Below are positions 27,001 through 30,000 of a stretch of DNA of 45,470 bases, in pieces. Origin of the DNA: a virus (lineage: Duplodnaviria > Heunggongvirae > Uroviricota > Caudoviricetes); the IMG/VR virus record IMGVR_UViG_2537562188_000009, positions 1 to 45,470 of that record; one strand, written 5' to 3'. A program made the position numbers. Every line of letters starts with the position of its first letter. Position 1 is the first letter of the stretch.

Positions 27001-30000
27001 ACCACATCGTAGTGTTTAAATGTCATAACCTCTCCTGCCGCCAGCAAAGTAATTATCCGGAATACACAATCATGTAACACATAAAAAACACGCTATAAAA
27101 AAACCATGTCTCTTATATAACAAAAAAACGCCGACAATTTAAAATGCCCTCTTATTTTAAACAAAGAATAAACGACACCAGAAAAACAACTCAGGCTGAC
27201 AGATTGCTTTCAAAACATCACCTATAATTTATGGCATCATTTAAAACCTTAAGAAAATAAGGAAAGCAAATGAACTGGATAGTGATTGATACGGTAATCC
27301 AGCCAGCATGTGACATATCATTTTCAGCCATATGGTGTAACATAAAATTAATATTATGGTATCAGTCTGATATCTTCCTCCCTCCGGGCTGTATTTTTAC
27401 ACCAACCCGGACAGGCGTAATACTCAATAATAAAGAGCTCCCCGTCACCATTTACAACGTGACCCCATTTAATAAAAACGTCTGGAATTTAATTAAAAGC
27501 AGCCAGGAATGCCCTGCAAACACAGGAAATATCACAGATAAGTGTTTTAATCATCGCTGCATTCTGGAAATATGCCCATACGGGCGAAAATAACAGAATC
27601 ATTCAGATAAAAAGCCCCTCCGGAGAGGGGCTGACACTGCGTATCTGTATCATCATGTACATGGTGCCGGGTGCCTCCCGGTGAGTTCAGTCCGGTGTCC
27701 CTGAACCCGCGTATCTCGATCCAGGTTGTCGTCAGAGATGACACCTTATACACCAGTCGCCCCTCCGCACAGGGGGATTCACCATGCGAAATTTTTTTAA
27801 CAAATGCTCAGTCTGACAGGCAACTGTCAACTGACTGAATTGTGACACAGATTACACTTGTTACCCACATACCACGAATCAGGTTATGCCTCAGTCATTA
27901 TTAAACTGCACTTCAGCAAATCCGGAGCCTGATTCACAGGTACTGGATTTGATTGTGACAGTCATTCCTGTCAACTGAGCACTTTGCAGTAACGGTTGCA
28001 GATTCCAGCGACTGGTCCAGTACTCTTTTCCGGCCACTTTTACTGTGAATGTATCATTCTCATTATACTTGGAAAACTCAATTTTACCTTTAGCGCAATC
28101 CGCCGCCATTGCATTAACAGAAACTAATGCAAATAAAACCGCCATAAACATCTTCTTCATACTTAACTCCTTTATTCACCCGTTGTATATAAAGACTGTG
28201 ACTTTCTGTTCAGAAACGCTGCTGCTGTATTACTTTCCCATAATGTATTGTTTATTTTTATAACGGGCCTGTCGCCAGTTATCTGACATTCTGGTTGACT
28301 CTCTTCATTCACGGCGCGAACAGAACGCGCCCCCTGATGATGGCAATTCAGTATAACGGCCACAGTACCCAGTATCGCTGATATATTATTAAAGGATATT
28401 CTCCCCACTCTGACACCATCCTCTCCCCGATACTCCGGAAGCACATTGCTGATTCGCCCCCAGTTCAGAGTGAGGTCCACGTCTCCCGGCGTCATCGTAT
28501 ACACAGGAGCAGTTTCAGACAGTGCCTGACGAAATTCTCTCTGTATCTGCCTGAAGCGTAAGGCTTCTGCTGTGACAGTGACAAAACGCAGAACTGCTCT
28601 GGATGCATCTCTGGTCATTGTATTACCACTGAACTCCATTAACGCCAGATATGATGAAACCAGTGAGTGACGACTGATTTGCATTCCGGAACGTTCCAGC
28701 GCTGCGACACGTTGCAGAGTGGTATAACTGCTGTCCGTTGTCATGGAAACCGTTGTCACACCGGGCACTGATATATGTGTAAAATCTGAAAAACGGTAGA
28801 AAGTATTTGTTGCCGTATTAACGAACCCGGCCACATATAAATTATTTTGCTCAATAATCAGACGAAGATGGTCAAAACGCGCCTGATAGACATCAAGCCC
28901 TCGTATATCCACAGCAAAATAACTGCCCGGCGGGGTGTGGTTAATAACAGACACCGATGTGGTCCCCTGAGATATATGTTCAAGAGGGGTCGATATCTCT
29001 GTCCGTATACTATTTAACGAAGAGACATAACTTTGTTGGGTCGAAAAGTCTATCGTAAACTCCCGGGAATAGGATACCGAAGAAAAACCCAGTAACAGGC
29101 ACAGTACCCATTTAAATAATATACACTTCATATACAGGTGTTCCTTTTGGCTGAAGTAATCAGCACCAGACCCGGCGCAGATATAAAAAAGGCCCGCAAA
29201 AGCGAGCCTGGTAAATAAATATGGCGCGTTGTACTGGATTCGAACCAGTGACCGATTGCTTAGAAGGCAATTGCTCTGTCCGGCTGAGCTAACAACGCAT
29301 AATGCTGATAATGGACCGCCATCGAGGACTCGAACCCCGCGCAGCCAGCTTCGAAGGCTGGCGCTCTATCCCGATGAGCTAATGGCGGTATGTGATATGG
29401 TGGCCCTTGCTGGATTTGAACCAGCGACCTGGCGATTATGAGTCGCTCGCTCTCACCACTGAGCTAAAGGGCCGGGCGCAGGATAATAACGGTACGTAAC
29501 TAATCCTGCAATATCATCCGTTCTGACTGGCTAAATCCTGAACTTCCCTGACCGTCTGCTCAAAACGCTCAGTCTCCAGCTCAACGCCAGTTGCACGACG
29601 CCCCAGCGCCATCGCTGCTTTGACTGTCGAACCCGACCCCATGAAAAAATCTGCAACCAGGTCACCCGGACGACTGCTCGCGCTGATTATCTGCTGCAGC
29701 ATTTCTGCCGGTTTTTCGCACGGATGTTTCCCGGGATAGTACTGCACCGGTTTATGCGTCCACACATCCGTGTACGGCACCTGCGCCGTCACGCCAAAAT
29801 ACCGCCGCAGATGCTTATATTCACTCTGCAGTTCCGCATACTGCCGGTTCAGTGAAGTATACGTCTCCAGCAGCTGGTGGTGGGGCTTTTCCAGTTCACC
29901 GCGCTGATGCTTCTCTTCTGCCACCCGGGCAAACAGCGCCTGTAATTTCAGATAATCGCTTTCGTTCGGTAGCTGCCACTGACTGGCACTGAACCAGTGC

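Follow-up and report, generated by a model that had tools for sequence, protein, structure and literature searches.

An IraM-family gene convergent with an STnc100-type small RNA in the stxB-nanS-p interval of an Stx2d prophage

The anti-adaptor IraM of Escherichia coli K-12 binds RssB, so that RpoS (sigma-S) is not delivered to ClpXP, and it is induced by PhoPQ at low Mg2+ (PMC10948607, PMC13529223); a passage of PMC6064147 that cites Battesti 2012 describes the K-12 gene as repressed by H-NS. Its relative IraL, from uropathogenic E. coli (UPEC) CFT073 and Shigella, has log-phase expression and binds RssB at the N-terminal domain only (PMC4045071). In Shiga toxin (Stx) phages, an Hfq-binding small RNA (sRNA) named EcOnc27 in Sakai and sRNA103 in EDL933 lies about 75 nt 3′ of stx2B (PMC4104026, PMC12711010, PMC12370729), and AsxR and AgvB, which are Hfq-binding RNAs of 51-60 nt, sponge FnrS or GcvB (PMC4104026). 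Here we describe the interval between stxB and nanS-p in a 45,470-nt stretch of Caudoviricetes DNA (IMG/VR record IMGVR_UViG_2537562188_000009, hereafter the window), in which an iraM-family gene runs convergent to an sRNA of the STnc100 family, the family of EcOnc27/sRNA103. We think it probable that this interval consists of two convergent regulatory genes inserted among the late genes of an Stx2d prophage, one encoding an IraM paralogue that would block RssB and would likely be activated by PhoP, and the other being STnc100/EcOnc27. Both parts belong to curated families and are annotated in public records, and these two known families account for the whole interval.

The protein-coding half of the interval is a plus-strand open reading frame (ORF) of 107 aa, which an earlier note on this sequence had described as Cys-rich and convergent with the late operon. 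The frame is there as described, starting with ATG and containing seven Cys residues (positions 14, 23, 41, 81, 92, 97 and 102), and a homology search, which that note had recommended, identifies it as IraM, a relationship that its author had not recognised. It scores 160.4 bits against the NCBIfam model for anti-adapter protein IraM (NF007393, cut-off 121), residues 1-107 falling on profile positions 1-110 of 114, and it aligns with K-12 IraM over 107/107 residues and free of gaps, with 65% identity and 83% similarity. The IraM core in PDB entry 8twd (chain A) is matched by phmmer at E=3.1e-36 across residues 1-78, the beta-barrel. The family assignment rests on NCBIfam and the PDB match and not on Pfam: a local Pfam scan of the ORF returned nothing at E<=0.01, and precomputed annotations file the family under PF11183 (PmrD). 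AlphaFold2, run on a 16-sequence family alignment, gave an unusable model (mean predicted local distance difference test score 38.5). By homology, then, the ORF is a prophage-borne member of the IraM family and an already annotated part of it, given that RefSeq and several GenBank phage records carry the names "anti-adapter protein IraM" or "iraM". The earlier description of the segment as a regulatory insert was apt, since the product is a homologue of a regulator of RpoS proteolysis.

Structural work on K-12 IraM places 14 of its residues in contact with RssB, in three clusters (I4, I6, W22, K26 and I42; T13, C14, F18 and W30; I61, Y62, H63, I64 and P66; bioRxiv 10.1101/2023.01.07.523045). 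In the alignment with K-12 IraM, 11 of the 14 are identical in the phage copy (I4, I6, W22, K26, I42, C14, F18, W30, I61, Y62 and P66), and the phage protein is predicted from this to bind RssB. Neighbour joining places the Stx-phage clade as sister to that of K-12 IraM and apart from a probable IraL-type clade.

Comparison of the alleles indicates that the gene is clearly under purifying selection. The ratio of nonsynonymous to synonymous substitution rates (dN/dS) lies at 0.08-0.20 in comparisons with alleles whose dS is 0.8-2.4, the reading frame is uninterrupted in every locus inspected, and 28 residues are invariant among 16 family representatives, the four C-terminal Cys included. One could suppose that the ORF is an H-NS-silenced hitch-hiker with no present function, kept only through its location in a recombination module that also comprises STnc100 and nanS-p at its 5′ end, and silencing would indeed be expected of such an AT-rich cassette, which moves with flanking mosaic segments. 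Nevertheless, low dN/dS among alleles saturated at synonymous sites, intact frames, invariant residues and the conservation of the Shine-Dalgarno (SD) sequence, the -10 hexamer and an upstream block all speak against such a passenger, which we hold to be very improbable.

The invariant residues of the C-terminal tail deserve a separate mention. In 16/16 representatives, C81, C92, C97 and C102 (CX10CX4CX4C) are conserved together with P82, P103 and Y104 (27510-27593, residues 81-107). This tail was removed from the crystallised IraM and was termed less conserved and flexible (bioRxiv 10.1101/2023.01.07.523045), and the spacing of its Cys residues resembles that of a metal-binding or redox motif.

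The place of the gene is as informative as its identity. In 933W, the stxB-nanS-p interval holds STnc100 (207.7 bits) followed on the opposite strand by AsxR (RF02703, 88.1 bits), and no iraM; it measures 486 bp in 933W/Sp5-type Stx2a phages, compared with 864 bp here. The window and 933W share an identical sequence from stxB to about 27769, beyond which the remainder of STnc100, the convergent gene and the beginning of nanS-p are all divergent. Thus, the comparison with the same interval of other Stx2 phages that the earlier note called for reveals that iraM and AsxR alternate at one slot, iraM being present here and AsxR in 933W. The anti-sRNAs to which the note alluded, AsxR and AgvB, are accordingly not to be found in the window: no Rfam match reached the gathering threshold anywhere in it, none appeared at E<=10 in 26900-28300, and a pattern search allowing up to 3 mismatches had no match in the window, with the 88.1 bits of 933W serving as the positive control. 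We therefore rejected AsxR/AgvB as a component of the interval, given that neither covariance model nor pattern matched. In the literature, we found no study of the alternation of iraM and AsxR at the stxB-nanS-p slot.

The cassette extends well beyond this prophage. Among GenBank phage sequences, 350 records match part of the interval; the iraM cassette is present in 45 records, including 17/17 labelled as Stx2c-converting, and the AsxR-type segment in 282. At least 80% of the interval is present in 234 of 5426 complete E. coli genomes, and the STnc100 part in about 2670. In IMG/VR, 275 stretches encode relatives of the phage IraM, and for the 80 that were fetched, a convergent STnc100-type match lies just 3′ of iraM in all (80/80), nanS-p is found on the other side of iraM in most of those reaching far enough upstream, stx occurs in only 11, and AsxR in 0/80. 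For instance, an 82%-identical allele (P0002) is found at this position in phages whose divergent Stx2 has a B subunit of 87 aa, and two other alleles (P0005 and P0012) sit in the same slot in non-Stx prophages. Judging from these occurrences, the cassette is older and wider than stx, and since the order of iraM and convergent STnc100 recurs with or without stx, we regard it as an exchangeable moron. It is absent from 933W, its GC content is 0.366, its -10 is conserved and a hairpin follows it, promoter and terminator activity being predicted. The suggestion that the insert was acquired independently is in line with this 577-bp cassette being absent from 933W/Sp5-type Stx2a phages and occupying the same slot in lambdoid prophages that carry or lack stx. 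No STnc100 partner accompanies the copies outside prophages, namely the iraM gene next to icd in K-12 and a copy on an island, P0004 (loci L002 and L008).

Some individual loci show variations. At the P0012 locus, the gene is adjacent to one for LpxR, a lipid A deacylase, and an IraM-family gene followed by an LpxR gene is recorded in the same moron slot of a prophage (L094, 4001-5773). In a non-Stx prophage, STnc100 is present as two tandem copies downstream of the iraM homologue (L044, 1320-1977). The K-12 iraM gene falls just beyond the annotated limits of the e14 prophage, beside icdC/icd (L002, 3414-4004), and the order bluF-bluR-ycgX-ymgL-ymgK-iraM-icd is also found in a genome with an intact icd (L091, 3001-4677). 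Thus, the placement of iraM "on the e14 prophage" in PMC4045071 seems inexact.

The base composition of the interval had been summarised as an AT-rich island of roughly 800 bp. This holds for the nanS-p-proximal cassette, which falls in the lowest 0.27% of 577-nt windows by GC content (whole-window mean, 0.523) and in which the iraM gene itself has a GC content of 0.40 compared with 0.52 for the window, whereas the 213 bp nearest to stxB (27604-27816, GC 0.535) are GC-rich and correspond to STnc100. The "island" is thus a composite, its AT-richness being restricted to the cassette. Its left edge also has to be moved from 27081: a mechanical ORF list gives a GTG start for nanS-p at 27080, but the RefSeq start is an ATG at 27026, so that the intergenic interval proper spans 27027-27890. 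The only other equally AT-rich stretch of the window (GC about 0.36) lies at about 39130-39850 (plus strand) and holds a gene for an XRE-family, CI-like repressor. The features of the interval and its flanks are collected in Table 1.

Table 1. Coordinates of the features in and around the stxB-nanS-p interval (window numbering)
Feature	Coordinates	Strand	Basis or remark
nanS-p, sialate O-acetylesterase-type late gene	25053..27026	-	ORF and RefSeq CDS of the identical RM7190 record; divergent from iraM
AT-rich cassette, 577 bp	27027-27603		GC 0.366; carries the iraM ORF on the plus strand
AT-rich divergent intergenic region, 243 bp, presumed iraM promoter inside	27027..27269		GC 0.33; upstream-region alignment
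Candidate PhoP-box-like direct repeat, CGTTTA-TTCTT-TGTTTA (plus strand: TAAACA-AAGAA-TAAACG)	27158..27174	-	Putative activator site
-10 hexamer TATAAT, presumed iraM promoter	27223..27228	+	Sequence; no recognisable -35
Shine-Dalgarno AGGA, 6 nt before ATG	27260..27263	+	Sequence
iraM-family gene, 107 aa, RssB anti-adaptor homologue	27270..27593	+	NCBIfam, K-12 IraM alignment, PDB match, RefSeq name
STnc100-family sRNA (EcOnc27/sRNA103 of O157 Stx2 phages)	27604..27816	-	Rfam RF02076; late strand, convergent with iraM
Intrinsic terminator of STnc100, 8-bp GC-rich hairpin and T-run	27613..27632	-	Rfam alignment
stxB, Stx2c-type B subunit	27891..28160	-	ORF and RefSeq CDS

The second half of the interval fits the Rfam model of STnc100 over its full positions 1-206, with 158.7 bits (gathering threshold 47, E=9e-36). 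Its central and 3′ parts, the terminator stem included, differ from the 933W allele (158.7 compared with 207.7 bits). Expression and Hfq binding have been reported for the Sakai/EDL933 allele, which is not the allele of the window (PMC4104026, PMC12711010). EcOnc27/sRNA103 has been found in outer-membrane vesicles, its functions are only proposed and are uncertain in the literature (PMC4104026, PMC12711010, PMC12370729), and a 2026 preprint links STnc100/EcOnc27 to the PasD sRNAs. The late-strand terminator that had been noticed just past the stop of the ORF does exist as a hairpin and T-run, 20 nt beyond that stop, but it belongs to STnc100 and not directly to stxB, whose stop lies 259 nt upstream of it. 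The same hairpin forms on the plus strand after iraM, where it has no U-tract.

This geometry raises the question of whether the product that matters is an RNA, that is, whether the plus-strand transcript acts mainly by pairing, in antisense or convergent fashion, with STnc100 and the late stx transcript, and so takes over the function of AsxR. The convergent arrangement is like that of the AsxR/EcOnc27 pair (PMC4104026), and the missing U-tract makes read-through into antisense STnc100 plausible. On the other hand, selection acts strongly at the protein level, no AsxR/AgvB similarity was detected by the Rfam and pattern searches given above, and the chromosomal and island copies exist without an STnc100 partner; we consider an RNA role of this kind the least probable of the explanations discussed here, with hardly any chance of being correct.

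The 5′ part of STnc100 (27769-27816) is identical to that of 933W (L003), with a T at about +90 and an extra T at about +103 after stxB, two features that have been listed as predictive of haemolytic uraemic syndrome (HUS; PMC12711010). Stx2c phage 1717 (L004) has a C and a T deletion at those positions. Stx and non-Stx prophages alike conserve TCACAATTCA and TTGAC(A/T) where the STnc100 model has its 5′ edge or immediately upstream (27817-27850, minus strand). A search for a sigma-70 promoter of STnc100 found no convincing -10 at the right spacing from TTGAC(A/T) or TCACAATTCA.

We now return to iraM and its possible control. The ribosome-binding site and the TATAAT box that the earlier note had pointed out are both confirmed (Table 1). 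An alignment of the sequences upstream of iraM in diverged alleles brings out three conserved islands against a background of low conservation: the SD/start-codon block (identity 0.81), a block at 27155-27184 and the -10, whose hexamer (TATAAT, TATGAT or TATACT) stays in place. A consensus promoter scan found no acceptable -35 for the TATAAT and for this reason did not list an iraM promoter; a good -10 lacking a -35 fits what would be expected of an activator-dependent promoter. The block at 27155-27184 is the best conserved part of the upstream region (identity 0.79-0.85, compared with 0.4-0.6 in its flanks) and contains a direct repeat with 1 mismatch to KGTTTA-N5-KGTTTA, the E. coli PhoP box (11/12 positions match). 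In the 82%-identical allele (L005) and in one other (L020), both halves of the repeat match fully (TGTTTA-N5-TGTTTA); in a clade of about 73% identity it reads TAAATA-AACAA-TAAACA, and its spacing to the -10 is constant across alleles (48-49 bp). A strict PhoP-box regular expression run over all upstream regions matched in the Stx-phage clade only, whereas relaxed inspection of the alignment added the one-mismatch variant of the 73% clade and revealed deletions in L093 and L024. Taken together, these signals suggest that iraM may be under PhoPQ control in lysogens. H-NS may silence the same AT-rich promoter, as its base composition would predict. A second one-mismatch match to the PhoP box (TGTTTATGGCGGTTTTA) lies at 28134-28150 (minus strand), within the region coding for the stxB signal peptide, and is probably there by chance.

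Several observations weigh against an IraM that works and is controlled as in K-12. With regard to its control, the repeat taken by itself is only marginally unlikely: 225 of 5000 dinucleotide-shuffled versions of the intergenic region yield such a site (p about 0.045), and the window contains 2 PhoP-box-like matches where 0.53 would be expected. The classic site overlaps the -35, whereas this repeat is located about 48 bp upstream of the -10, centred near -69, in reverse orientation, and it is deleted in two allele groups that retain the gene (L093 and L024). A -10 at about 12 nt from the repeat, as in a PhoP-type promoter, was sought by eye on both strands and not found. Relative to the divergent nanS-p, the repeat is in direct orientation and lies about 130 bp upstream, so that it could act on nanS-p in place of, or in addition to, iraM. 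Termination of iraM is uncertain in the light of its U-tract-free hairpin. With regard to function, three contact positions are changed relative to K-12 IraM (T13A, H63N and I64V), IraL and IraM are known to differ in their regulation and in the RssB domain that they bind (PMC4045071), and we found no paper linking IraM to Stx phages and no study of a phage-borne IraM.

These points bear on the most serious rival explanation, in which the protein is a genuine connector of the IraM/PmrD fold that is wired differently: it could either be produced constitutively and bind RssB at the N-terminal domain only, as IraL does, or protect or sequester another response regulator in the manner of PmrD and PmrA, so that there would be no PhoP-triggered stabilisation of RpoS. 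The divergence between IraL and IraM just mentioned would accommodate such rewiring, as would the absence of the PhoP-like repeat from some alleles, the roughly equal distance of the phage clade from K-12 IraM (65%) and from the probable IraL-type clade (58-64%), and the PmrD-like fold of IraM, whose family is placed under PF11183. Nonetheless, the identical RssB contacts include members of all three contact clusters, the sister group in the tree is K-12 IraM and not the IraL-type clade, and the NCBIfam IraM score is well above its cut-off. We therefore consider such rewiring unlikely, albeit less so than a silent passenger or an RNA function, and continue to favour an IraM paralogue that acts on RssB.

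If the phage protein does work like K-12 IraM, the following course of events can be proposed. In the lysogen, iraM would be read from its own activator-dependent promoter, with the -10 at 27223-27228 and no -35. The AT-rich promoter DNA would be expected to be silenced by H-NS, and PhoP would probably switch the gene on through the conserved repeat, as in the case of K-12 iraM. IraM would then sequester RssB, RpoS would accumulate, and the lysogen would gain general-stress and acid tolerance. Upon induction, RNA polymerase modified by Q would start from pR′, pass the STnc100 terminator and read iraM in antisense before entering nanS-p and the lysis genes; such late transcription should shut iraM off, to judge from the geometry of the locus.

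A subset of Stx phages would in this way provide their host with an additional, possibly PhoPQ-triggered brake on RpoS degradation, encoded directly beside the toxin genes. This subset comprises all Stx2c-converting records in the GenBank phage set, the Stx2d phage of the window and some Stx2a phages. RpoS governs acid and general stress resistance in enterohaemorrhagic E. coli (EHEC), and iraM would thus be a lysogenic-conversion trait distinct from the toxin. More tentatively, and with doubts that outweigh our confidence, we propose that the iraM-STnc100 pair is an exchangeable alternative to AsxR-STnc100 that couples PhoPQ sensing of low Mg2+, acid and antimicrobial peptides to sigma-S proteolysis, and that it alters the stress tolerance of lysogens and, via RpoS, prophage induction and toxin release, both in Stx2c/2d-type and in many non-Stx lambdoid prophages. 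Were this the case, such a cassette could contribute to the differences in behaviour between Stx2c/2d and Stx2a phages, and the contrast between Stx2c/2d-type phages, which carry iraM, and 933W/Sp5-type phages, which carry AsxR, would be easy to test.

The surroundings of the interval are those of a lambdoid prophage. Positions 27081-27890 match the chromosome of strain RM7190 (E. coli O91) at 100% identity, and the window is an Stx2d prophage. On the minus strand of RM7190, RefSeq annotates Q, a DNA methyltransferase, tRNA-Ile/Arg/Arg, "Stx2d subunit A", "Stx2c subunit B", a DUF6645/SASA esterase (nanS-p), holin and lysozyme, and the late operon runs from right to left in window coordinates. 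The nanS-p protein is 73% identical to the SASA-family esterase of 933W. The tRNA genes for Ile, Arg and Arg occupy 29225-29473 (minus strand), between the methyltransferase gene and stxA, as do ileZ-argN-argO in 933W. At 36868-37056 (minus strand), Rfam detects a C4 antisense RNA (83.6 bits) beside isrK (65.3 bits); the pair lies within or upstream of early-region genes of the Rha family and with BRO-N, in a module of the antirepressor-control type.

Compared with the described systems, the phage gene is closest to K-12 IraM (YcgW/ElbA, b1160), with which it shares its length of 107 aa, a gap-free alignment, most of the RssB contacts, an AT-rich setting and a PhoP-box-like repeat upstream, that of K-12 being TAAACA-AATCT-AAAACG about 200 bp before the ATG. 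In contrast to the K-12 gene, which is chromosomal, lies next to icd and has a much longer upstream region, the phage copy has a leader of about 35 nt, is located among the late genes of a lambdoid Stx prophage, is convergent with an sRNA and carries the three substitutions at the RssB interface. IraL, likewise an RssB anti-adaptor, resembles it as a horizontally acquired member of the same family (PMC4045071), whereas the probable IraL-type clade (P0012-P0020, 58-64% identical) forms a separate branch. With PmrD, which is PhoP-induced and binds a response regulator, as the phage copy may also do, it shares a fold class (bioRxiv 10.1101/2023.01.07.523045; Pfam PF11183), but the target of PmrD is PmrA and not RssB, and the local Pfam scan gave no significant direct sequence match.

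The sRNA half resembles STnc100/EcOnc27/sRNA103 and the related PasD in fitting the full Rfam model and in beginning about 75 nt after stxB (PMC12370729, PMC12711010). The AsxR and AgvB genes (RF02703 and RF02702), whose RNAs are marked by a conserved 3′ region of roughly 42 nt and a terminator, are the counterparts of iraM in position: they occupy the identical slot between stxB and nanS-p, on the opposite strand and convergent with STnc100/EcOnc27, and, like iraM if its predicted activity is correct, they rewire host regulation from a moron expressed in the lysogen. Unlike the iraM cassette, to which they are unrelated in sequence, they act as sponge RNAs (PMC4104026). Finally, the cassette can be compared with the lambdoid morons bor and lom (the concept comes from Juhala et al. 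2000, which PMC4104026 cites), which it resembles as an autonomous unit of atypical composition with its own predicted promoter and hairpin, present or absent among collinear phages and presumably expressed from the repressed prophage. While bor and lom encode surface proteins, the iraM cassette encodes a cytoplasmic regulator of proteolysis that is paired with a convergent sRNA.

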